A stretch of DNA of 36,671 nucleotides from positions 62,001-98,671 of IMG/VR virus record IMGVR_UViG_3300038504_000001; one strand, written 5' to 3'. Under the pieces are notes generated by a model. The model was given only the letters and a program-made list of their open reading frames with translations, made no database searches and was not told the DNA's origin. A program made the position numbers and the translations under genes. This stretch comes from an uncultured virus (IMG/VR IMGVR_UViG_3300038504_000001) (taxonomy: Duplodnaviria > Heunggongvirae > Uroviricota > Caudoviricetes). How positions within the stretch are numbered: position 1 is the first letter of the stretch; every line of letters begins with the position of its first letter. Positions 6,878-29,134 of this stretch are shown piece by piece.

Positions 6878-7175
6878 TAATTGTTCTTTCTGTGGAGTTC
6901 CTTTAACTGAAGAGAACAGAGCAAGAACTAATAGTTGTAAAGAGTGTCGTAAGATTGAGTCTAAGTTTGATGCTGACAAGCACAGAGAAGAACGAAACTT
7001 AAAAAGAAGATTAGCAAGAAGAAAGCCTACTAGAGTACAGACTTGTGAGATATGTAAAAAAGACTTTCATACTTCAATAGAGTTACAGAGAATATGCTCA
7101 TCTGAAGAGTGTCAAAAGAAGAGAAAAGCTATTTACAATAAAGCTTATAATAAAATATACAAAGGAGAGAACTGA
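6870..7175 (+). CDS. Basic zinc-finger protein
   Basis: CSFC, CKEC, CEIC, CSSEEC; K/R-rich. Confidence 0.7.
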   Translation: MLDNCSFCGVPLTEENRARTNSCKECRKIESKFDADKHREERNLKRRLARRKPTRVQTCEICKKDFHTSIELQRICSSEECQKKRKAIYNKAYNKIYKGEN

Positions 7176-7747
7176 TGGATAAAAAGGTTATAATGGTAAG
7201 CGGGAACATTGACCATGGAAAAGATTTCTTGGCTGACTTATTTATGGGGGAACTTAGTATTCTTGGAATTACTGCTGAGAAGATTTCAACTGCAAGAGAA
7301 CTTAAAGAACAGATTTGTAATTTGTTTCGTATAACGCCTGAGTTTTTAGATTATCATAAAAATCAAAGAACTCCTATTGTATTGCCTGATAAGAAAACTG
7401 TATTTAACTTTAGAACTTTCATTCAAGACTATGGAACTTTAATGAGAGAAAAGAGGGGTTTTAATGTATGGGCAGACCACCTGCTGAATGATATTTTTAA
7501 TTCAAAAGCAGAAGTAATTATTGTTCCTGACTTAAGATATCCTTTTGAGTATGATACTATTAAAGCTATATTTAATACTACAACTGTAAGAATTGTAGAT
7601 GATAATATTCCTGTAGACTACTCTCATAGCTCTGAAACTTCTATGGTTGGCTTTGATTTTGATTATGTGGTAAACAACACTGGAAGACCTAAATCTACTA
7701 TAGATGCTTCTACTCGTATTCTTAAATGGATTCTAAATGGCAGATAA
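7175..7747 (+). CDS. Deoxynucleoside monophosphate kinase (T4 gp1-like)
   Basis: P-loop GNIDHGKD, RTFIQDYGT, PDLRYPFE, HSSE, DYVVNN. Confidence 0.85.
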   Translation: MDKKVIMVSGNIDHGKDFLADLFMGELSILGITAEKISTARELKEQICNLFRITPEFLDYHKNQRTPIVLPDKKTVFNFRTFIQDYGTLMREKRGFNVWADHLLNDIFNSKAEVIIVPDLRYPFEYDTIKAIFNTTTVRIVDDNIPVDYSHSSETSMVGFDFDYVVNNTGRPKSTIDASTRILKWILNGR

Positions 7748-8448: not shown

Positions 8449-9837
8449 ATGGTTAATTCGCTATTTGCCGACACAAAGACTAGGGTTATGTCTGATGAAA
8501 TTCTAGCTAGATTTAAAGAAGAGTTCAACAGAGACCCTGAGTATCATAAAGCTATGTATGACAAATACTTACCTGTATTTAGAAAAGAAGCTATCGATAT
8601 TGACAGGCTGTTTTCTATTCACGATGAAGCTTATATTCAAGAGGTTACTTACTTCTTAATGTACTCAGCTAAAAAGCTAGTTAGCAATTACATAAAACCT
8701 AAACCTGATTTCACTGATTTAAAGAATCTACTTGACTTAGACTTAGAAAGACTTCCTGAACTTAAGGATTTGTCTCTCACTCACGGATTATCTTTCTGTG
8801 ATGCTTTTACTAAAGAACATAGATTAGCTTGCCCAATTGTTGGTAAAGGTAATTCTCAAGCAATAAAACTATTGAAAGATGACTACGGTCTTTACAAAGC
8901 TACATTAAAGGCTTGTTATTTTCATAGAACTAAAGTGACTCCAAAAGCTGTACTTAGAACTGTGGAAATGTTAGTTCCCGTAGTTTCAAATTTCAAGCCT
9001 GTAGTAGCGGCTAAGATATGGTATGATTATGCTGTTAAGCAAGCTTTAGAAGCTGGACGAGATTATGTTGCTCTTCTTGTAAGTTCTGAGGGTTGGTTAG
9101 GAAGACTATTGTCTGGATATAAGATTGCTTATGACTTTCCACAACTGAAAGTGTATTATGTTTCTGTCGACCCTAACCCTTTGGTTAATAGAGAGTTTCA
9201 CAATATGGTTAAAACTTTAAGAGAGTATCACGATTTGCCTAATTGGTTTCCTGAGACTCATATGACAGGTTCTGAGAACTTCAGGGAGCTCCCTAAAGGA
9301 ACTAATTATCAATATGATATGCAGTTTACTTCTCCCCCATATTTCAATACTGAAGTGTATATGGAAGGCTATATCATTACTCTAGATGATAGTACTGAAA
9401 TTGTACTAGCTGACAACGAAGATATTGAAGTTCAAGGAGAAAACAAATACGAACCTTGTAAAGTGATTTCTGTAACTGAGTTGGAACTTGGAATGATTAC
9501 TTCTTATGGGGGGACTGTCGTTTCTATTAAAAACACTGGTCAAAGTCATAATACTTCTGGAACAGCAGAGGAGTGGAGAGTTAATTTCTTATTAGCTACT
9601 TACAAATGTCATAAAGATATAATAAAACCTGGTGGATACACAATAACTAATATTGCAAATGTCCGAAGTTGTATGAAGCTTGAGGAGTATACTGTTAGGT
9701 CTGGACTTGAGGCAGGGTTTGAGTATTTAGGGGAAAGTTGGTACAAGCTTTCTAGAAAACCAAGCAAAAATAAGAATTCAGAGATTACATCAAGAGCTGG
9801 GGAACCTATTTTTATATTTAGAAACCCTGTTGAATAA
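8449..9837 (+). CDS. Amino-(N4C/N6A) DNA methyltransferase-fold protein, atypical
   Basis: SNFKP, motif-I-like VSSEGWLGRLL, VDPN, motif IV FTSPPYFNTEVY, IKPGG, EPIFIF; about 60-aa insertion after motif IV. Confidence 0.8.
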   Translation: MVNSLFADTKTRVMSDEILARFKEEFNRDPEYHKAMYDKYLPVFRKEAIDIDRLFSIHDEAYIQEVTYFLMYSAKKLVSNYIKPKPDFTDLKNLLDLDLERLPELKDLSLTHGLSFCDAFTKEHRLACPIVGKGNSQAIKLLKDDYGLYKATLKACYFHRTKVTPKAVLRTVEMLVPVVSNFKPVVAAKIWYDYAVKQALEAGRDYVALLVSSEGWLGRLLSGYKIAYDFPQLKVYYVSVDPNPLVNREFHNMVKTLREYHDLPNWFPETHMTGSENFRELPKGTNYQYDMQFTSPPYFNTEVYMEGYIITLDDSTEIVLADNEDIEVQGENKYEPCKVISVTELELGMITSYGGTVVSIKNTGQSHNTSGTAEEWRVNFLLATYKCHKDIIKPGGYTITNIANVRSCMKLEEYTVRSGLEAGFEYLGESWYKLSRKPSKNKNSEITSRAGEPIFIFRNPVE

Positions 9838-9881
9838 TGCTAATCTAGTATCTTAAAAAGAATTAAAACAAGGAGTAAACT

Positions 9882-10445
9882 GTGCAAGGAAATATTGAAA
9901 TAATAGACACTGTAGCTGAATTTGATATAGACAAATTCATAAGCTTTGAGAGTCTGGTTAATAAAAGATTAAACTACAACGGAGACCAATTTGCTGAAAT
10001 ATTAGAAAGCATATCTGAAGAAGATGAAGAGCCTACTTCAGAAGCTTTCTTGGAGTGTTATAATTCTGAGTTCAACCCTATAAAAGCTGTTTTCTATGTT
10101 GAGAACGAAGACGAAGATTTACTTGGGGGTTGTGTCTTATGGAATGCATCTTTAGACAGAGTTAAAATAGTTGACTTAGCTATTTCTGAAGATTGTGAGG
10201 GTCAAGGACTTGGTTCAATACTTATGGACGAAGCAATAGCCTATTGCAGGAGAAAAAAGATATCTCAAATAAACCTTGAAGTTAGAGATAATACTCCTGC
10301 CAAGTTTTTATATCTTAACAAAGGCTTTGAAGCTGTAGTATTGCTAACTGACTTTTACAAAGACTATGATGCTGAGAATTTAGTTGCTGAGAGAGGTCTT
10401 GAGATTCCTAGTCAAGATGCTTGGTATATGGAGCTTTACTTATGA
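9882..10445 (+). CDS. RimI-like GNAT N-acetyltransferase with acidic N-terminal extension
   Basis: LAISEDCEGQGLGSILM (acetyl-CoA motif A), LEVRDNTPAKFLYLNKGF, FY...DAWYM; GTG start after AAGGAG. Confidence 0.9.
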   Translation: MQGNIEIIDTVAEFDIDKFISFESLVNKRLNYNGDQFAEILESISEEDEEPTSEAFLECYNSEFNPIKAVFYVENEDEDLLGGCVLWNASLDRVKIVDLAISEDCEGQGLGSILMDEAIAYCRRKKISQINLEVRDNTPAKFLYLNKGFEAVVLLTDFYKDYDAENLVAERGLEIPSQDAWYMELYL

Positions 10446-11440
10446 GAACAAATGAACTTAAAAACGAAATAGAAAACACAGCATATTGTTCTGGAACAGA
10501 TATTATTGCTTATCTAAAAGAGTATCATACTTTTTTATCAGATAAAGGATTTTCAGCTTGTTGTTTAGCTACTTTATTCTTTTGTGCATCTTCAACTTCA
10601 TTTAAAATCGTAAACGTTGGTAATACAAAATTTCTGTTTAAAGAAGAGGGCAATAAGAAATATCAATTACAAGGTCTTCCTGTTGCAGACACTTTAGATA
10701 GAATAAGAGAAGCTGTAAGCTGTTGCCTTGAGCTTGGAATTGGTCTTGATTTGTCTGACTTAGATTTACTTAAACTTAAAATGAGTCCAATACCAGAAGT
10801 TATTATTGATAGCTATTTATATGAGCATAGTTCTATGTTTGAATACTTAGAGGGTTGCAGTAGGTCTACAAGAAAAAACATTAACCGATTTGATAGAGAG
10901 TATTCTTTTGCTGTTTTTAAAGCTAATTGTGTTTCTGATAGGGTTATGAATGCTATAAAAGATATAAACGAGATTTGGCTTAAAGAGTTCAAAGACGGAA
11001 ACAAAGACTACGAATACAATATTGATAACACTGAACTGTGCCTAACTAGTCATTTGATTTCACTAATAAACGCAGCTGTTATCGTTTACTATGATAAAGA
11101 GGACAAAATAGTAGCTTACGATTACTTTGAAGCTTGGGGAGATACTGTGTACTCTCTTGGTGGAAAATCTATAATAAAAGATTTATCTTCATTCAAGTCT
11201 GTAAACCGAAATGTGATGAAAGTTGCTAACGATTTATTTGGAGCTACTAAAATGGACATTGGATATTCTACTATATACAAACCTTTAAGTATGAAACCAA
11301 TAACAGAAAACTCATTGAAGTTAACTGAAGCTAAAAGTTCATTTCCAAACACTAGAACTTTGTATAATATCTTTTATACTAAGCCTTCTAAGTATTCTAA
11401 AGTTGAAGCTGTGGATAACAGTTCTAACTCTCTGTTTTAA
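10442..11440 (+). CDS. DUF2156/aaPG-synthase catalytic-domain-like aa-tRNA transferase, paralog 1 (type A)
   Basis: DSYLY..LEG..RKNINRFDREY, IVAYDYFEAW, AKSSFP match the DUF2156 pattern (DY.Y..L.G.K..KRN.INRF; AK.SY.P). ATGA overlap with the GNAT stop. No TM segments. Confidence 0.6.
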   Translation: MRTNELKNEIENTAYCSGTDIIAYLKEYHTFLSDKGFSACCLATLFFCASSTSFKIVNVGNTKFLFKEEGNKKYQLQGLPVADTLDRIREAVSCCLELGIGLDLSDLDLLKLKMSPIPEVIIDSYLYEHSSMFEYLEGCSRSTRKNINRFDREYSFAVFKANCVSDRVMNAIKDINEIWLKEFKDGNKDYEYNIDNTELCLTSHLISLINAAVIVYYDKEDKIVAYDYFEAWGDTVYSLGGKSIIKDLSSFKSVNRNVMKVANDLFGATKMDIGYSTIYKPLSMKPITENSLKLTEAKSSFPNTRTLYNIFYTKPSKYSKVEAVDNSSNSLF

Positions 11441-11449
11441 GGAAACCAA

Positions 11450-12382
11450 ATGCTAAATATTGCTGACATACCTAAGATTAAAAAAGCTTGGTCTTCTCTA
11501 AAACCTGATGAAGTTCTTGGAAGACTTTCATATGAAAATAACTTATTGCATGCAACAAAAGGTCATAAGCTTTTAAATGGGTGGTACTATTATGGTTGGG
11601 CAAACTACTGTATGTGGTCTCCTATCTTTTTAGAAGATACTAGTCGAGACCCAATGGAATTCTTTAAAGAGAATCCTGAGATAACTCATTGCTCTCATTA
11701 TCAAGATATTCATAGCATATCTCATAAGCCTAGTGAAAAGAAGTCTAAATATGCTACATTTTTATATACTAATTCTGAAGAGAACTTAAGTCTTAATGGA
11801 AAAGAGTATGCTAAGTTTAGACAGGCACTTAACTATATGAAAGATAACAAAATAACTATTGAACAGTATTCAGAAAACAAACCTGTGGATTTAGCTATTG
11901 TTCTTGAAGTAAAGTGCTTAATTGATTCTTGGAAAACACACAAAAAAGAAAACATAAAAGAGAAAGTTAACTATGAGCCTTTTGAGGTTATATCTAACTT
12001 GTATGACTATGGAACTTCTTTAGAGTATTTAACTACTATCATAAGGTATGACGGTGTTATAATTCATTATGAAACTTCTGAAAGAATACACCCTAATTAC
12101 ATTATAATAAGTGACTTAAAACCTAATGTATCTTTACCTAAAGAGGTAGCTACTAAATTTGGGTATGTAAACAGGTTAAACCATTATACTCATCTAGTGC
12201 ATTGGCATAACAAATACATTGAACAAGGTTATGATAAATCTTTTCCTATATACTATAATATTGGGGACGACGATTGGGTAAGTTACAAGAGTAGCTTAAA
12301 GCCTTCACACATAGTATCTACAATTAATAAAAAAGTAGGTAAACCTCCTGTGAAAAAATCTTTATCTAACCAATTATTTTAA
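11450..12382 (+). CDS. DUF2156-like aa-tRNA transferase, paralog 2 (type B)
   Basis: FLY..LSLNGKEYAKFRQALN, SERIHPNYIIISDLK, YYNIGDD..YKSSLKP. Confidence 0.65.
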   Translation: MLNIADIPKIKKAWSSLKPDEVLGRLSYENNLLHATKGHKLLNGWYYYGWANYCMWSPIFLEDTSRDPMEFFKENPEITHCSHYQDIHSISHKPSEKKSKYATFLYTNSEENLSLNGKEYAKFRQALNYMKDNKITIEQYSENKPVDLAIVLEVKCLIDSWKTHKKENIKEKVNYEPFEVISNLYDYGTSLEYLTTIIRYDGVIIHYETSERIHPNYIIISDLKPNVSLPKEVATKFGYVNRLNHYTHLVHWHNKYIEQGYDKSFPIYYNIGDDDWVSYKSSLKPSHIVSTINKKVGKPPVKKSLSNQLF

Positions 12383-12392
12383 GGGTATCAAA

Positions 12393-13370
12393 ATGACATT
12401 AATAGAGATTAAAAAAGCTATAGTTCTTGGAGCATATAAAATAACTCCTGATGAATTTATTAAAGCATATAAGAAGATGATAGCTAACAATTTACAAGAG
12501 CTAACTTATGACTCAAATACTTTAGAGTTGTTTAAATATTCTGAAAGCTATACTTTCAAGATAGATGAAACTTTCTTTGCAATTCACAAAAACGGCAAAC
12601 ATTATGCTTCTTGGTTTACTCCATTCACAGAAGAGGGTAATAATATCGAAGCATTAAATCTATGTATCGACTTAGGTATTGATATTACTTTTCACGATAA
12701 AGTAAGGGAAAAGCTGGGAGTGTCTTTTGAAAGCACTTATCAGAAGTTTGATGCTTACACTTATTCTAATCAAGGAATTATTGACAATTACAATGCGGCT
12801 GGGAGAAACAATAGTAGACGAAAGATTAATAAACTTAGAAGTTCTACTTACTTTGAGGTTATCCCTGCGAATGAGTTAACTGTATATCAGAAAGAAGACA
12901 TTTCAGAATTAGAAAAACAGTGGTTCGAGGTTGTTAAAAAGTCTAATTCTTTTTATTCTTTCAACTTTAATCAGTTAGTTAAAAACCATTTCATATCTGA
13001 TATTTTCAATGACACATTCGTTATATTATTCAGAAACAGGGAAGATGGAAAACCTGTTGGATACAGTTGTACTGAAATTATAGGAAACAAAGGTATTGAA
13101 TACATTAGAAAAAGCATTATGCAAGGTTCTCATTATGAATATATGACTATTGTTCAGATGGAAACATTGAAACAAAAATACAATATTGAGCTTATGGACT
13201 TTGGTGCAGCTAGGTTCTGGTATGGTAAGTCTATGATTGATAGAGTGAATGAACAGCTTTATAAAACAAAGTCTTCACTACCTCACGAACTTCATTGGGT
13301 TCATACTAGTGGGTATGATATGAAAAAGTTCAATAGCGTAGATATTGAAGCTTCTAGAGAATTATTTTAA
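12393..13370 (+). CDS. DUF2156-like aa-tRNA transferase, paralog 3 (type A, divergent)
   Basis: DAYTY..RRKINKL, QWFE, PVGYSCTE..RKS, MDFG..TKSSLPH; tail FNSVD shared with paralog 5. Confidence 0.55.
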   Translation: MTLIEIKKAIVLGAYKITPDEFIKAYKKMIANNLQELTYDSNTLELFKYSESYTFKIDETFFAIHKNGKHYASWFTPFTEEGNNIEALNLCIDLGIDITFHDKVREKLGVSFESTYQKFDAYTYSNQGIIDNYNAAGRNNSRRKINKLRSSTYFEVIPANELTVYQKEDISELEKQWFEVVKKSNSFYSFNFNQLVKNHFISDIFNDTFVILFRNREDGKPVGYSCTEIIGNKGIEYIRKSIMQGSHYEYMTIVQMETLKQKYNIELMDFGAARFWYGKSMIDRVNEQLYKTKSSLPHELHWVHTSGYDMKKFNSVDIEASRELF

Positions 13371-13379
13371 GGAAAACAA

Positions 13380-14306
13380 ATGGTTAGTAAATCTGAACTA
13401 AAATCTATAGCTGAAGCTTACAGAAAAGTCCCTAAAGATGAAGTATTAAACCACTTCCAATTTGAAAGCTCACTGATGTTTAACCCTAAAAACATAAAAC
13501 TAACTGATAATGGTTGGGCTTATTATCAAGAGGGGGCTTCTATTTATAAAGGTGTTACTAATATAAATAATCCTGAACAAGACCCAAATAAGTTTATTGA
13601 AAGTCTTAGTAGTTATTACGAGATAGAGCGAGTTTATTCTGAAGAGAATCAATTAGGCGAATTGTTAAATGGTTTGCCTAAAAAGAAAATGGGTATGCTG
13701 ATGTTCCTTTATGATAACAATGGACTACTTTTATCTAAAGTAGGAAAAGATTATCATAGATTCAGAACTAGCAGTAAGTACTTGGAAGACCCTGACTTTA
13801 GAGTGGAAGAGTTTGATAACAATAATCCTTTAACTTACGAAGCTTTATCTGCAATTATGTCTTTGAATGATAGTTGGAAAGCTAAAAAGAAAGAAGATAA
13901 CGACCCTGCTAGTTATGATGTTAATCGATGTATTAAAAACCTATTTGAGATTGGAAGTTTAACTGAATATTATGTAACTTTAATCTGGTACAAAGAAGAA
14001 CTATTGCACTTCCATTCTTCAGAAAGATTACATAACAACTTTGCAATATTACTTGACAGTAAAGTTAACTTTGGAGTAGATAAAGAGCTAAACACTCAAT
14101 TTAGATACTGCAACTTTTTACAACATTGGTTGCATATCAAGAAATGGCATATTGAGGGAGAAAAAGTGTACTATCATTCTGGAATGACTTCAATGAGTAG
14201 TTACAAAGTTCAACTTAGGCCTGCTATAATTTCTAAGTACTATTTAACTTTAGTTGCTGATATGCCATTTATATCTAGACCTAGTAAATCAAATTCATTA
14301 TTTTAA
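13380..14306 (+). CDS. DUF2156-like aa-tRNA transferase, paralog 4 (type B)
   Basis: FLY..GKDYHRFR, DSWK, SERLHNNFAILLDSK, YKVQLRP; aligns by eye with paralog 2 (DEVL, NGW.YY, GSLTEY/GTSLEY, WH). Confidence 0.6.
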   Translation: MVSKSELKSIAEAYRKVPKDEVLNHFQFESSLMFNPKNIKLTDNGWAYYQEGASIYKGVTNINNPEQDPNKFIESLSSYYEIERVYSEENQLGELLNGLPKKKMGMLMFLYDNNGLLLSKVGKDYHRFRTSSKYLEDPDFRVEEFDNNNPLTYEALSAIMSLNDSWKAKKKEDNDPASYDVNRCIKNLFEIGSLTEYYVTLIWYKEELLHFHSSERLHNNFAILLDSKVNFGVDKELNTQFRYCNFLQHWLHIKKWHIEGEKVYYHSGMTSMSSYKVQLRPAIISKYYLTLVADMPFISRPSKSNSLF

Positions 14307-14317
14307 AAAGGTAACTT

Positions 14318-15301
14318 ATGAACATTAAAGATTTCAAAAAGAAATTACTCTCTGCCTCTATTGAGGTTCCTCCCTTAGAGTTCCTTGATAGATTTTATGC
14401 TATGATTAAACACTTAAAGCTGAAAGGTTTCTATTTCAACAATAACACTTGCTGGATTTGGGGAAAACCTGCTAAGATTTTTGAGTACGATGGTGTTCTA
14501 TTTTGTGTTCATATTGCATCTGGCACTTACAGATTATTAGGGATTCCTGTTACAATGAGTTATGCTAAATTGGTTGAAGCAACTTCAATGTGTATTGAGC
14601 TTGGTCTTAATCTTAGAATAGGTAAAGAGGACTTAGCTGAAGTTACTGCATTGTACCCAGCAAAAGAATTAAATGATAATTACAATTACTATCATAAAGA
14701 CTTAGAGAACTATTGGGAGACTTGTTCTAGACAGTCTAGAAAAATACATAACCGATTAGAAAGAGACTATTCTGTTCTTGTATTAAAACCTCAAGACGTT
14801 CCTGTAGAGCTTGTAGCTAGGGTTTCTGAAATTAATCATATATGGATTAATCAATTTAAAGATAATGCTGAGAAGTCAAAACAAACTTTATCTTATGTGG
14901 ATAATATCTTTAAGCAAAATGTCCCTTTAGATAATGCTAGATTTATATTCTACACTAGAAATGAAACTGGAGTTGTAGAAGCTTACGATTATTTTGAAGC
15001 TTGGCATGGAGTAGGTATTGCTCCTGCTGGTAAAGCTATAATAGAGGGTTGCTCAACTTTCAAACATGTAACTATCAATATTGTGAAGTATCTAAAAGAA
15101 GAGCTTGGCGCAGGTGTTTGTCTGTTGGGTGGTTCCAATTTTTATGATTTAGATATGACTGTGCATAAAGATGGAAATCCTGGACTAAAGGTTGCTAAAA
15201 TGTCTATACCACACGAAGTTACTTATACTTATGTATATAGATATAATCCAAAAGCTTTCAACAGTGTTGATGTGTCCGAAAAAGTAAATGAGCTTTTCTG
15301 A
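14318..15301 (+). CDS. DUF2156-like aa-tRNA transferase, paralog 5 (type A)
   Basis: CSRQSRKIHNRLERDYS, EAYDYFEAW, GNPGLKVAKMSIPH (cf. DUF2156 G..GLRKAKLSY.P); closest to paralog 1. Confidence 0.65.
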   Translation: MNIKDFKKKLLSASIEVPPLEFLDRFYAMIKHLKLKGFYFNNNTCWIWGKPAKIFEYDGVLFCVHIASGTYRLLGIPVTMSYAKLVEATSMCIELGLNLRIGKEDLAEVTALYPAKELNDNYNYYHKDLENYWETCSRQSRKIHNRLERDYSVLVLKPQDVPVELVARVSEINHIWINQFKDNAEKSKQTLSYVDNIFKQNVPLDNARFIFYTRNETGVVEAYDYFEAWHGVGIAPAGKAIIEGCSTFKHVTINIVKYLKEELGAGVCLLGGSNFYDLDMTVHKDGNPGLKVAKMSIPHEVTYTYVYRYNPKAFNSVDVSEKVNELF

Positions 15302-20815: not shown

Positions 20816-21319
20816 ATGCAAAACATAGCTTTAAACACAGCAGGAGCGGATATTGCTTCTGAGAACAAAGATAAGATTGTAGCTCTTTTAAACAAAGCTG
20901 TTGCATCAGGTTGGAAAGCTAGTTTTCAATATATACTAGCTTCTGCTTTAGTTAGGGGCAATGAGGGTTCTGAGATATCTGAAGCTTTAGCAAATCATTC
21001 ATTAGATGATTTTAAAGACGTTACTTCTATGGTTAATAGAATAATTGAACTAGAGGGTAAACTTATTCTTAACTTTGATGATATATCTAAAATTGCACCT
21101 GACTTTCAATCTCCAACTAATGAATCAAGTGTTGAGATTGTTAAGCAAACTTTAGCTACTCAAAAATCAGCTATTGAATTGTATAAACAAATAGTAGACT
21201 TAGCTAAAGAGTCTGGAGATAATGTTACTGAACTTTTTATGACAAACATTTTATCTGGAGAGGTTACTAATGAAAGAGAAATGCAAAACTTACTAGAAGA
21301 TTTGGAGACTTCAAAATGA
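20816..21319 (+). CDS. Ferritin-like (DPSL/bacterioferritin) protein with degenerate ferroxidase site; MQNIA-tagged
   Basis: LLNKA..W.A..QY, RIIELEG, AIELY, GDNVT..IL..E four-helix-bundle pattern. Confidence 0.8.
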   Translation: MQNIALNTAGADIASENKDKIVALLNKAVASGWKASFQYILASALVRGNEGSEISEALANHSLDDFKDVTSMVNRIIELEGKLILNFDDISKIAPDFQSPTNESSVEIVKQTLATQKSAIELYKQIVDLAKESGDNVTELFMTNILSGEVTNEREMQNLLEDLETSK

Positions 21320-21666: not shown

Positions 21667-22104
21667 ATGCAAAATATTGCTAATACGAAAGAAATAGACA
21701 AGAAGCATCCGGGTTCTTGGTGCATCCCTCTGTATCAAGGAAAAGCTCTAGCTTTAAAAAGAGTCGACGGTATGTGGGACTTTCCTGGGGGAACAATCGA
21801 CCACGGAGAGTCTTCATTACAGGGTGCTGTAAGAGAGTTGAAAGAAGAAGCTAATATCACTGTTCCTATAGACTCTCTAAAGCCAATAGGGGTTCACATC
21901 ATTGATGGAAGATACTTAAACGTATTTGTAGCTTTAATTGATGAAGATGAATTTAACAATCTTAAACTTCAAGAAGAAGAGCATACTGAATATAAGTGGA
22001 TATCTTCAACTAGCGAGATACCTGGAAAACTAAACCCTCCAACAGAGGAATTTAAAAAGCAAGGTTGGTTAGCTAATCTTGACTTCATATTAAGCAGACT
22101 TTAG
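21667..22104 (+). CDS. Nudix hydrolase; MQNIA-tagged
   Basis: WDFPGGTIDHGESSLQGAVRELKEEAN Nudix box; EHTEYKW. Confidence 0.92.
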   Translation: MQNIANTKEIDKKHPGSWCIPLYQGKALALKRVDGMWDFPGGTIDHGESSLQGAVRELKEEANITVPIDSLKPIGVHIIDGRYLNVFVALIDEDEFNNLKLQEEEHTEYKWISSTSEIPGKLNPPTEEFKKQGWLANLDFILSRL

Positions 22105-23379: not shown

Positions 23380-24219
23380 ATGAACACAACAATTATTGAA
23401 CAATCTGACATTCCTGCACATTTAATGGAATTAAACAATTCTGTTGAGAAGCTAGGTATTTCGGGAGTTTACTATGGTAAAGTATCTTTACTTGCTATAA
23501 ATATGTTTAGAGCTTTTTTCATTCACGACAGCATAACTATTGATAATAAAGACGTGATTGAGACTATCACTTTAGATGAAATGACTGTCTTGCTAGTTAT
23601 TCATAACAATTCTTTTTACATTGTTAGTCGTTCTGAGAGTGGTGGTCAGCTTCTTTTCGGTAAGATACACGAATCTGATATATCTGACTTACATTTGATT
23701 GTTGAGAATGGTACTTCAAAAATGCATCACAAGATTATTGAGTTAAACAATACTGTTTTTTCAAAACTAAAAACAAATATTGAGGGAATTAAATCTGACT
23801 TTCCATTTATTACTGATATTGTTTCTTCAGATAAAGGAATTACAGTTCATTCTTCTATTGCTCTTGATTATGATAAAAGCAGGTCTTTATCTTTACCTAT
23901 TTTTATTCAACAATCTAAAGACTTATCTTCAATGTGTACTATTATAATTGAGGTTCTGGTATCTAACTTTGAAGAAGAAAATGACATTGAATTAGCTTCT
24001 CTATATGGGGTTCTTCAAGATTTATATCTTGCAGCTGGAACTATTGAACAGTTATATGCTTATCTTGTAACTGAACAGTTGCTTGAGTATGATATTAAAA
24101 GCCCTGAAGAGTTGTCAAAGTTAAATGAAGTTTCTTATGATGGAATTGTTGTTGAGGCTGTTACTTCAAGTTCTGAAGAGCCTGAGATTAGTCTAATTGA
24201 AGACAAAGGAGAAAATTAA
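23380..24219 (+). CDS. Hypothetical acidic protein
   Basis: 279-aa ORF with AAGGAG RBS. Confidence 0.75.
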   Translation: MNTTIIEQSDIPAHLMELNNSVEKLGISGVYYGKVSLLAINMFRAFFIHDSITIDNKDVIETITLDEMTVLLVIHNNSFYIVSRSESGGQLLFGKIHESDISDLHLIVENGTSKMHHKIIELNNTVFSKLKTNIEGIKSDFPFITDIVSSDKGITVHSSIALDYDKSRSLSLPIFIQQSKDLSSMCTIIIEVLVSNFEEENDIELASLYGVLQDLYLAAGTIEQLYAYLVTEQLLEYDIKSPEELSKLNEVSYDGIVVEAVTSSSEEPEISLIEDKGEN

Positions 24220-24220
24220 T

Positions 24221-24844
24221 ATGAACACTGTTATTTCACAATACACTTTTGATGATTACATTAAAGACGCGGTAAGAACTGAATCTACTCTATTGCCTTT
24301 AACTAAAGAGGTTGAGCAAAGAGGGCTTTCTAACAGATTGTTTCACGCTATTCTTGGTCTTGAGACTGAGATTAAAGAAATGTATGACGTATTTGAGTCT
24401 GGTAACACAGACTTAGATATTGTGAATCTTATGGAAGAGTGCGGAGACGCTTACTGGTATTTAGCTATTGCTTTTGATGAACTTAAAATTGAAGAAACAA
24501 CTCTTTTGCTAGATAATCTTTCTCACTGTGCAAATGGGTTCAACCTTGCTAGAAATGAATTAAGTAGCCTTAGAATTACTTGCGGAGAAGTTCTTGACCA
24601 TTGCAAAAAAGTTATGTTCTATGGAAAACAGCTAGATACTGAGATGGTTTCAGGACATATTCACAGAGCTTATTGCCTTGTTGGCTATATGGTTGCTCAT
24701 TGTAACTACAGAGTACCTTATGTACTCAACACAAATATTGCTAAACTTAAAGCTAGATATCCTGAAAAGTTTACAGCTACTAATGCTGAAGTAAGGGACT
24801 TAGACGCTGAAAGAGCTATTCTTGAAAAGGGGCTTTCAAAATGA
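24221..24844 (+). CDS. MazG-like nucleotide pyrophosphohydrolase
   Basis: HAILGLETEIKEMYD, EECGDAYWYLA, NIAKLKARYPEKF; ATG 24221 after AAGGAG. Confidence 0.85.
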   Translation: MNTVISQYTFDDYIKDAVRTESTLLPLTKEVEQRGLSNRLFHAILGLETEIKEMYDVFESGNTDLDIVNLMEECGDAYWYLAIAFDELKIEETTLLLDNLSHCANGFNLARNELSSLRITCGEVLDHCKKVMFYGKQLDTEMVSGHIHRAYCLVGYMVAHCNYRVPYVLNTNIAKLKARYPEKFTATNAEVRDLDAERAILEKGLSK

Positions 24845-27125: not shown

Positions 27126-27295
27126 AAGTAGCTATGATTGCTAAGATACTTTTACAAGATAACCTTGATTTTAGAAACAAGAAAAACTTAGCTAAGTATC
27201 TAGATAAAGAATTTAAAGGAGATATTAGTTCTTTAAAGAAAGTTTCTAAGTTAGCTAGAGATTTAACAGAAGTTAAAGATAACTTTAAAACTTGA
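27122..27295 (+). CDS. Small basic protein (57 aa, not in ORF track)
   Basis: MKVAMIAKILLQDNLDF...DNFKT; ATGA overlap with the previous gene. Confidence 0.55.
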   Translation: MKVAMIAKILLQDNLDFRNKKNLAKYLDKEFKGDISSLKKVSKLARDLTEVKDNFKT

Positions 27296-27611
27296 ATGTT
27301 CTTGGGTGTGGATTTCCTTTCTGCAACTTTGGCCTGTCCACACCTCAGAGCATTTATTACCTTAACGGTAGCTCTAGTATTGACAGCTCATACTTTGTGT
27401 AGCTGTAGAGGACTCGTATTAATTTTACTTAGAAAGTCTTCGCCAGTAAAGGGTCGGTCCTTTACTGAAGAATATATTATCTCCTAGGTTTTATATTAAA
27501 AGTCTGTGTGCGTGTGATTCCTTGTGCCAAAGGGCTCTTATTCATATGATTTGGTTTTACGATACTCTTTTTTAAATAGAATTTTCCACCTAGGTCTCCT
27601 TGCTTAGGTGG
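27295..27611 (+). ncRNA. Putative structured RNA(s) upstream of the tRNA-like genes
   Basis: Stems at 27295-27354, 27372-27410, 27444-27467 and 27586-27611 in a gene-free gap that is more GC-rich than other spacers. Confidence 0.4.
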
Positions 27612-27614
27612 TTT

Positions 27615-27690
27615 GGGGTGCTAGCTGTAATTGGTTAGAGCAACTGCTGAGAGCAGGGTTGTGTAGGTTCGAACCCTACGCACTCCACCA
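27615..27690 (+). tRNA. Aberrant tRNA with Ala identity (G3:U70, A73); anticodon arm non-canonical (5-nt loop UGAGA, or GAG anticodon on a 3-bp stem)
   Basis: GGGGTGC/GCACTCC acceptor, A, encoded CCA; T arm GTAGG-TTCGAAC-CCTAC; D arm GCT..TGG..AGC; CTGC-TGAGA-GCAG. Confidence 0.8.
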
Positions 27691-27748
27691 TAATATTGAA
27701 ATAAATACAGTAGCTATACTGTGGGTGCCAACCTTATTTATTTCTTAT

Positions 27749-27825
27749 GTCTCAATAGCTCAGAGGTAGAGCAATCCCCTTTTAAGGGATAGGTCGCACA
27801 TAATCAAAAAGTGCTTGGGACACCA
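27749..27825 (+). tRNA. tRNA-Lys(UUU) with aberrant T arm
   Basis: GTCTCAA/TTGGGAC acceptor, A, CCA; GCTC/GAGC D stem; ATCCC-CTTTTAA-GGGAT; T arm GCAC-ATAATCAAAAA-GTGC lacks GTTCRA. Confidence 0.85.
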
Positions 27826-27909
27826 TTTAATTTCTTGTAGTATGAACTTATTGACAGTCTATACTAGGGGAAACCCTACCTACGCTCATTAGGTTAAACT
27901 CTTAGTTAT

Positions 27910-27951
27910 CAAGTACTGTTGTTGCTAACATTCATACAGTACTTGGTTTTT
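27910..27951 (+). terminator. Stem-loop plus T-tract closing the RNA cluster
   Basis: CAAGTACTGT/ACAGTACTTG perfect 10-bp stem followed by GTTTTT. Confidence 0.55.
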
Positions 27952-27970
27952 ACAAACAAAACTTCAAACT

Positions 27971-27989
27971 TAGTATATATCTTTATAAT
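27971..27989 (+). promoter_or_regulatory. Phage-specific promoter-like motif TAGTAT-N7-TATAAT
   Basis: Best copy of a motif also present at 2699, 4315, 5712, 22809 and 25288. Confidence 0.55.
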
Positions 27990-28006
27990 CAAATAAAAGG
28001 AATATT

Positions 28007-29134
28007 ATGCGTAATTTAGCTAACAAATATCGTCCTTCAACATTTAGTGAAGTAGTTGGGCAAGAGCATATGACTGTTCTTTTAGATAGTATGGTAAACG
28101 GCTCTGGAGTATTGCCTTCAGGTCTTGTATTTGTAGGTAAGGCTGGTTCAGGAAAGTCAACGTCAGCTAGAATATTGGCTAAAGCTATCAACTGTTTATC
28201 TGAACATAAACCTTGTAATACTTGTGCTAACTGTGTTATGTTTAATACTATAAAATCTGATGGTATGCCTTCTTATCCTGACTATTTAGAAGTTGACGCC
28301 GCATCTTATGGTGGTAAGGAAGACATTGGATTACTTCTTGACTTAGCTGATAGAGGTACTTCTGTGCCTGGGGGACGAAGAGTAATATTGCTTGACGAAG
28401 CTCATAGATTATCTAGAGAAGCTTTTGATATTCTTCTTAAACCTTTAGAAGAGGGAATGTCTAAAACTGTTTGGATATTCGCAACTACTGATGGGGACAA
28501 AGTCCCCGCAGCTATATTGTCTCGTTGCCCTACTTTTACTACCAGACCTTTAACTCAAAAGAAACTTTATGGATATCTCAAAATGATTCTTGAATCTGAG
28601 AGTCTTGAATATGATGAAAAAAGCTTAACATTATTGTCTTATATCTATGCTGGTAAAACTCGTGATGCTGTAACTGAATTGAATATGCACGTAAACTCGA
28701 AAGGTTCTTTCCTTTCCTATAGTGACAAGTCTATTTATGAGTACATTATGGACTCTATGCTTAGAGCTTATAATAAGGACTTAGAGGGAGCTTATGAGTT
28801 GGTTAAAGAAACTATATCTTTTAAATCATCAAATATTGGTTATGACATAAGCGAAACAATACTTGCATTATATACTAAAAACTATAACCTAGTAAACAAG
28901 GGTGTGTTAGATGATTTTATAGAACTTGTTGGAGTTAATCTTTCAAAGATTATGAATATTTATCTTAATAACAATATTACTAATTCAGATAAGTTTATTC
29001 TGTCTTTGTGTTTGATAAGTGATTTAAACAAATCAACTGTTAAATCAATACAAACTAAAAGACGTGTGAAAACTGAAACTAGTATAAGCAAGGGATTAGT
29101 TGAAGATTTAGCTGGAACAGGAAAGTTTACATAG
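28007..29134 (+). CDS. dnaX: Clamp loader, DNA polymerase III gamma/tau-like
   Basis: LANKYRPSTFSEVVGQ, GKAGSGKST, C..PCNTCANC, EVDAAS, LDEAHRLS, LLKPLEE, ILSRC. Confidence 0.95.
   Translation: MRNLANKYRPSTFSEVVGQEHMTVLLDSMVNGSGVLPSGLVFVGKAGSGKSTSARILAKAINCLSEHKPCNTCANCVMFNTIKSDGMPSYPDYLEVDAASYGGKEDIGLLLDLADRGTSVPGGRRVILLDEAHRLSREAFDILLKPLEEGMSKTVWIFATTDGDKVPAAILSRCPTFTTRPLTQKKLYGYLKMILESESLEYDEKSLTLLSYIYAGKTRDAVTELNMHVNSKGSFLSYSDKSIYEYIMDSMLRAYNKDLEGAYELVKETISFKSSNIGYDISETILALYTKNYNLVNKGVLDDFIELVGVNLSKIMNIYLNNNITNSDKFILSLCLISDLNKSTVKSIQTKRRVKTETSISKGLVEDLAGTGKFT

Follow-up and report, generated by a model that had tools for sequence, protein, structure and literature searches.

In Staphylococcus aureus, the non-proteogenic tRNA-Gly species NP1–NP3 serve FmhB, FemA and FemB, and TGC or TGT replaces TTC in their T loop (available part of PMC7826273), confirming what a first-pass annotation of the locus described here had stated about staphylococcal tRNA-Gly with a changed T loop. 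FmhB reads determinants in the D arm and the T arm of these tRNAs and, in the same portion of that article, the affinity of EF-Tu for the tRNA body is set by the T-stem pairs 49–65, 50–64 and 51–63. MprF-type enzymes are described as using ordinary aminoacyl-tRNAs, and the identity elements of LysRS are given as the anticodon plus A73 (available part of PMC9976931). Among phages, Mom of phage Mu is a GNAT that moves glycine from Gly-tRNA to adenine in DNA, by which the use of a charged tRNA by a phage enzyme was first shown, in 2026 (available part of PMC13219725). Phage T5 encodes a tRNA-Lys(UUU) variant that neutralises PARIS (AriA/AriB) and rescues infection (available part of bioRxiv 10.1101/2025.02.04.636281). 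In the full-text literature searched, we found dedicated non-ribosomal tRNAs documented only in staphylococci, and no phage described as having both aminoacyl-tRNA transferases and non-canonical tRNAs of its own.

The window analysed here, a stretch of 36,671 nt, corresponds to bases 62001–98671 of a 98,671-bp virus record; coordinates below are those of the window unless given as genome coordinates. The ends overlap by 99 bases, the genome is assigned to the direct-terminal-repeat class, and its completeness is rated at 100%. Its G+C content is 32.5%, its + strand holds nearly all genes, and its gene set is that of a tailed phage (major head protein, tail tube, baseplate, tail spikes, endolysin, DNA polymerase, ligase, helicases and clamp loader). 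Matches to family A DNA polymerase are split over two ORFs about 49 kb apart (genome 1763–3271 and 52644–54446), one corresponding to the palm/fingers part and the other to the N-terminal part, and may represent a split polymerase. A 237-aa PAS-fold protein (Pfam PAS_4 1.5e-07; genome 31666–32379) is encoded amid the tail-spike and lysis genes, which is unusual for a phage structural region, and a ferritin-like (Dps-type) protein is encoded at window 20816–21319 (Pfam Ferritin 7e-21).

The whole genome contains exactly two matches to Rfam RF00005, at 27615–27687 (35.7 bits) and 27749–27822 (48.6 bits), the gathering score being 29; ARAGORN with default settings reported zero tRNAs in the window and zero in the whole genome. 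The two matches mark an Ala-type tRNA-like gene (27615–27690, + strand) and, downstream of it at a spacing of 61 nt, a Lys-type tRNA-like gene (27749–27825, + strand). Both lie in a non-coding gap with a 63-codon ORF (27296–27487) on one side and the clamp-loader gene (28007–29134) on the other, and the Lys-type gene is probably co-transcribed with the Ala-type gene. Direct reading revealed a stem-loop just 5′ of the Ala-type gene (27586–27611, + strand), possibly the end of an upstream transcript or a processing site. Its weak, partial match to ftsZ-DE (E 0.48) was treated as chance, and that identity was rejected. On the 3′ side of the pair, direct reading also revealed a terminator-like hairpin (27910–27951, + strand) with a 10-bp perfect stem and a 16-nt loop followed by a T run, which a consensus terminator scan missed because the scan permits only loops of 3–8 nt. 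Between the Lys-type gene and this hairpin lies a small hairpin (27863–27880) with a 5-bp stem and a GAAA tetraloop, which has no match in Rfam. In the rest of the genome, neither Pfam nor PHROGs revealed a gene for a synthetase, a CCA-adding enzyme or tRNA repair.

The Lys-type gene matches RF00005 on the + strand over model positions 1–71 (E 1.4e-07 for the window), and an encoded CCA follows the match and ends at 27825. By direct reading, the acceptor stem has seven pairs including U4.G69, and A73 is present; the D arm has a 4-bp stem and a 7-nt loop with G18 and G19; U8, A9, A14 and C48 are in place; the anticodon arm has 5 bp and a 7-nt loop with U33, UUU and A37; and the variable loop is 5 nt long, its last base being C48. 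The gene thus contains the Lys identity set of class II LysRS (U34, U35 and U36 with A73). Its minimum free energy (MFE) fold is exactly the cloverleaf, at −22.0 kcal/mol (z −2.79), and 3 of 200 shuffled sequences were equally stable.

The acceptor stem, D arm, anticodon arm and variable loop are intact, and the T arm alone is abnormal. Direct reading, the MFE fold and the Rfam alignment all place at 27796–27814 (+ strand) a 4-bp stem, GCAC/GUGC (27796–27799 with 27811–27814), around the 11-nt A-rich loop AUAAUCAAAAA (27800–27810). This arm departs from the canonical form in that it is without GTTC, has A.A at the 53–61 place and is not a 5-bp stem with a 7-nt loop; the Rfam alignment sets its 11 loop letters against 9 unshown model positions. 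The pairs G49-C65, C50-G64 and A51-U63 are all present. Two alternative readings of the loop exist: A.A and U-A pairs may close a smaller, 7-nt loop (AAUCAAA), or the sequence may be a T loop that carries two extra nucleotides after its first U (U-[AA]-UCAAAA). Some of the T-loop motif may thus persist, shifted in frame. We file the gene as tRNA-like, since it fails one defining feature of canonical elongator tRNAs. The first-pass annotation had described well-paired acceptor, D and anticodon arms with UUU, A73 and CCA, together with a T arm of a 4-bp stem and an 11-nt A-rich loop lacking GTTC; direct reading bears out both parts of this description, and the Rfam score and the MFE cloverleaf agree with it.

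This T arm stands apart from those of the tRNAs sampled for comparison. A pattern scan for the anticodon arm plus variable loop, in one genome per prokaryote species, yielded seven bacterial tRNA-Lys(UUU) genes with the same anticodon arm, all of which (7/7) have a 5-bp T stem and a 7-nt GTTC-type loop. The phage background came from five jumbo-phage records, in which the best 150 of 192 Rfam tRNA matches, all scoring at least 48.6 bits, included 87 readable class-I tRNAs. Among these listed matches the T loop is 7 nt in 87/87, with 81 matching the consensus and 6 off by one base or by register; the 42 lower-scoring matches lie outside this background and might include oddities. Similarity to the Lys-type gene in cultured phages covers only its 5′ two-thirds, and E. 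coli genomes gave no match to it. Contigs of run X5 were considered as copies of the phage's tRNA and rejected: they match only 27755–27796 and then continue into a canonical T arm, identifying them as the tRNAs of other organisms. Run X10 gave no coverage of the two tRNA-like genes.

The Ala-type gene, delineated by Rfam, its MFE fold and the contig of a relative, departs from the canonical form in a different arm. Its acceptor carries G1-C72, G2-C71, G3:U70 and G4-C69, followed by A73 and CCA, and its T arm is canonical (5 bp, loop UUCGAAC). AlaRS recognises G3:U70 with A73. The anticodon arm is a hairpin with a 5-nt loop, drawn in the MFE fold as 5 bp and a 3-nt loop. Judged from its sequence, this RNA is predicted to be incapable of normal decoding; with a hairpin in place of the anticodon loop, at least one RNA of the pair is not a decoder. 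The gene further departs from the canonical form at U14, G13.G22 and A27.G43, which besides the short loop makes some decay of the gene possible. Reading it as a tmRNA was rejected, as the ARAGORN tmRNA search finds none in the whole genome. Both tRNA-like genes were earlier said to retain their synthetase determinants, and they do so, as UUU with A73 in the Lys-type gene and G3:U70 with A73 in the Ala-type gene. The accompanying proposal, that each had lost one translation determinant in a manner unlike decay, holds in so far as both are abnormal in a part used for decoding; it does not hold for the number of defects, of which the Ala-type gene has several.

The odd T arm recurs in other samples. 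Contigs of run X4, from another sample of the same study, are identical to the window over 27200–28400, so the arm is not an assembly error. Run X6, from a different study, of wastewater, contains a 2067-nt contig that aligns over 27746–27825 with 4 mismatches and 0 gaps (76/80 identical). One mismatch is located, 27791 A>G, at the first base of the variable loop, and up to three may lie in the T arm. In the same contig, the clamp-loader gene is identical at 233 of 286 positions (53 mismatches, ~81%), and 318 unrelated letters replace window 27283–27745, leaving the upstream spacer unalignable. The Lys-type gene, its odd T arm at full length, is thus better conserved (95%) in this relative than the adjoining protein gene, and the contrast of 76/80 with 233/286, together with the unalignable spacer, forms a pattern of purifying selection and not of decay. 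The first-pass annotation had asked whether the odd arm is conserved in relatives or is unique to this assembly: it is identical in run X4 and is retained without a gap in the X6 relative.

The Ala-type gene is not alignable in the 2067-nt contig, which indicates that the pair is not always kept as such. Over 172 bases, a second X6 contig that spans the Ala-type gene shows 10 mismatches and 5 gaps. In the short loop one T is lost and one T is gained two bases on, so the loop of the relative would stay at 5 nt with an altered sequence, provided that no further mismatch lies in it. Protein searches returned closer clamp-loader relatives (P0007–P0011) at 61–84% identity. Among viral contigs, no close relative was found with the clamp-loader protein, with the transferase alignments A2 and A5, or with a tRNA pattern, the last of which demanded an A at 27791 that is absent from the X6 relative. 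Among the matches listed for metagenome contigs, the clamp-loader alignment retrieved only distant DnaX-like genes at 32–41% identity. The three IMG/VR phages nearest by clamp loader (38–39% identity, two of them complete) carry neither tRNAs (0/3) nor transferases (0/3).

The tRNA pair lies in the replication module, 12 kb downstream of a seven-gene operon (8449–15301) that looks like a multi-step modification pathway. The first gene (8449–9837, + strand) encodes a methyltransferase-fold protein whose neighbours in the protein atlas are N6_N4_Mtase proteins and in whose alignment the motif SPPYFN is invariant. Foldseek matched its AlphaFold (AF2) model (pLDDT 85.1) to class-I SAM methyltransferases, PrmC among them, with TM values kept low by the alignment of a single domain; by sequence, neither Pfam nor the PDB gave a match to this protein. 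The second gene (9882–10445, + strand) encodes a GNAT acetyltransferase (Pfam Acetyltransf_1 9e-13), and its stop codon overlaps the start of the next. The remaining five genes (10442–15301, + strand) are tightly spaced tandem paralogs, at 10442–11440, 11450–12382, 12393–13370, 13380–14306 and 14318–15301, all on the + strand and 17–28% identical to paralog 1. Pfam PF09924 (LPG_synthase_C) matches two of the five at E ≤ 0.001 and the other three not at that E; against its cut-off of 27.5 bits, paralog 1 scores above (33.8) and paralog 5 below (20.7). Seven of nine members of the transferase family match Pfam at E ≤ 1.

The AF2 model of paralog 1 (pLDDT 88.9, pTM 0.85) has the tandem-GNAT aminoacyl-tRNA-transferase fold. 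Its best Foldseek matches (4v36, 2hqy, 9j8s, 9wqw, 1xf8 and 4v35, all at probability 1.00) comprise L-PGS (4v36, E 4e-10), the stand-alone protein 2hqy, MprF, Sbb17, FemX and A-PGS, with TM values of 0.52–0.59. These results bear out the earlier description of the paralogs as transferases, and the five are assigned this fold. The likeness of paralog 1 to the C-terminal domain of MprF and the aaPG synthases (PF09924), to FemX and to Sbb17 is one of fold (Foldseek E 4e-10 to 1e-8); the paralogs differ from MprF-type proteins in lacking a membrane or flippase domain and any strong hydrophobic segment, and sequence identity is 8–14%. None of the operon proteins has a clear membrane segment. The gene context suggests an acceptor other than phosphatidylglycerol for the transferases.

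The paralog family is tiny, with 24 representatives in 1.84 billion proteins. Each paralog in the window has its own ortholog in relatives (35–59% identity), indicating that the five-gene set is old and that each copy has been kept. In one protein of a relative (P0140), a GNAT domain is fused to a transferase half. No homolog of paralog 1 was found in cultured phages. Among 80 viral loci (1.14 Mb) surrounding distant relatives of the methyltransferase-fold gene, none (0/80) held a transferase homolog, so these loci do not show that this methyltransferase family and the transferases are generally linked.

The replication module also holds genes for a dNMP kinase (7175–7747), a Nudix hydrolase (21667–22104) and a MazG-like pyrophosphatase (24197–24844). 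In other phages, a set of dNMP kinase, Nudix and MazG-like genes accompanies non-canonical DNA bases. These three genes, the methyltransferase-fold context, the replication module and the precedent of Mu Mom make DNA a candidate acceptor. The locus resembles the Mom system in that both involve GNAT-superfamily enzymes encoded by a phage, and Mom draws on a charged tRNA outside translation; with Mom's DNA modification may be compared an operon that starts with a methyltransferase-fold protein bearing an SPPY-type (amino-methyltransferase-type) motif. It differs in that Mom, as described in the available part of PMC13219725, is a single small GNAT using host tRNA-Gly, whereas here there are five tandem-GNAT paralogs, a separate GNAT and phage-borne tRNA-like genes.

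The tRNA-like genes, together with the five transferases, suggest that the tRNAs are kept for a job other than protein synthesis. The reading that we tentatively favour, at less than even confidence, is that a Lys-accepting tRNA-like RNA, its non-canonical T arm kept by selection, supplies Lys (and, with its partner, Ala) to the phage transferases and not to the ribosome. In the proposed pathway, host LysRS would charge the Lys-type RNA through its anticodon and A73, and host AlaRS would charge the Ala-type RNA. The rebuilt T loop would change the tRNA elbow, reducing use of the RNA in translation, and could double as a signal recognised by the transferases; the amino acid would then be moved onto an acceptor by the five soluble MprF/FemX-fold paralogs. 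As the damage falls on the loop and the 53–61 pair, we place the effect at the elbow rather than at the contacts with EF-Tu. The first-pass annotation had instead argued from EF-Tu affinity, an argument not supported here: the affinity-setting pairs 49–65, 50–64 and 51–63 are present as G-C, C-G and A-U, and the sequence gives no sign that EF-Tu binding is lost.

A donor role is favoured because the Ala-type partner is a non-decoder yet keeps its acceptor/T-arm helix and CCA, because the Lys-type gene is under selection with a T arm absent from the ordinary tRNAs sampled, because each RNA keeps what its own synthetase needs, because the genome carries rare enzymes with a fold used to transfer amino acids off charged tRNA, and because the three nearest IMG/VR phages have neither the tRNAs nor the transferases. 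It is also in favour of this role that the genome's only two tRNA-like genes are 61 nt apart and both non-canonical. Against it, the co-occurrence of tRNAs and transferases comes from one phage lineage, and the use of ordinary tRNAs by MprF-type enzymes means that dedicated donors are not required. The earlier proposal of a tRNA diverted to feed the phage transferases is thus coherent and partly supported, and is weakened by that single lineage and by the 12 kb between the genes. A more specific version, which we regard as unlikely, is that a translation-unfit donor pair for Lys and Ala feeds the seven-gene operon, which would decorate a phage or host macromolecule, possibly phage DNA, with an amino acid or a short peptide.

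By analogy, the Lys-type gene would work most like the staphylococcal non-proteogenic tRNAs. Like S. aureus NP1–NP3, it has an altered T loop with no TTC in the usual place and shares a genome with aminoacyl-tRNA transferases of the same superfamily, and charging by the normal synthetase, as in S. aureus, is presumed for the phage RNA. The differences are equally specific. According to the available part of PMC7826273, the S. aureus RNAs have a 5-bp stem and a 7-nt T loop, as opposed to the 4-bp stem and 11-nt loop of the phage; their first three T-stem pairs are weak (A-U, U-A, A-U), whereas those of the phage are G-C, C-G and A-U, of which only 51–63 matches. Their amino acid is Gly and they are bacterial; the phage RNA is Lys-type, phage-borne and known from sequence alone.

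Few parts of elongator tRNAs vary as little as the T loop and the G53-C61 pair. Their alteration here bears on the possibility, which we consider somewhat unlikely, that the Lys-type gene encodes a working translational tRNA-Lys(UUU), boosting AAA decoding or replacing host tRNA-Lys destroyed by a nuclease, with an odd T arm that is either tolerated or nuclease-evading. AAA outnumbers every other codon of the phage (1671 of 29573 in 113 ORFs; AAG 663), which gives an AT-rich phage an ordinary reason to carry such a tRNA and counts against a donor role. All parts except the T arm are canonical, the T-stem pairs that contact EF-Tu are present, and the gene is conserved. As to nuclease evasion, AriB cuts E. 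coli tRNA-Lys(UUU) at U36AAUC/A41 (the slash marking the cut) and the T5 variant resists it (available part of bioRxiv 10.1101/2025.02.04.636281). The phage tRNA has G-G-G at 39–41 and no U16-U17, so the AriB site is absent; this site is that of E. coli and may not be that of the host. The gene is thus similar to T5 tRNA-Lys(UUU) in being phage-encoded and in differing from the host-type sequence (here that of E. coli) at sites read by the nuclease. In the available part of the same preprint, the T5 tRNA departs by substitutions in its anticodon stem and D loop; the present gene has a rebuilt T arm and lies beside an Ala-type partner that does not decode. Comparison with the E. coli site is indicative only, since the host of this phage and its defences may differ. 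Against ordinary translation, none of the 87 phage tRNAs among the matches listed (0/87) and none of the seven cellular tRNA-Lys (0/7) departs from a 7-nt T loop, and the gene next to it appears incapable of normal decoding.

Another possibility is that the two genes are decaying, functionless remnants of a former phage tRNA cluster: the Ala-type gene scores only 35.7 bits, has four departures (U14, G13.G22, A27.G43 and the short loop) and is unalignable in one contig of a relative, and ARAGORN rejects both genes. We judge such decay quite improbable, as the Lys-type gene is 95% identical in the relative, compared with ~81% for the neighbouring gene and an unalignable flanking spacer, its damage is limited to one arm with all other stems fully paired, both genes encode CCA, and a terminator-like hairpin follows the pair. 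The unfitness of both tRNA-shaped RNAs for normal decoding would also suit tRNA mimics, acting as decoys for host tRNA nucleases, synthetases or tRNA-sensing regulators, or as transcript-processing signals, and tRNA-Lys is often targeted by defence nucleases (available part of bioRxiv 10.1101/2025.02.04.636281). Our literature search turned up no known decoy of this kind, and the fact that A73, CCA and the complete identity sets for the synthetases are kept argues for charging over simple binding; this explanation is very unlikely too.

Even if the Lys-type RNA is translational, a conserved bacterial-type tRNA with a 4-bp stem and an 11-nt loop in its T arm would be a useful test case for the role of the T loop. 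If the favoured reading is correct and the pair donates amino acids to the transferases, it would be the first case of virus-encoded non-proteogenic tRNAs and a natural example of a T-arm change that partitions a tRNA between the ribosome and other enzymes. It would also mean that viruses can maintain a stock of activated amino acids of their own, separate from translation.
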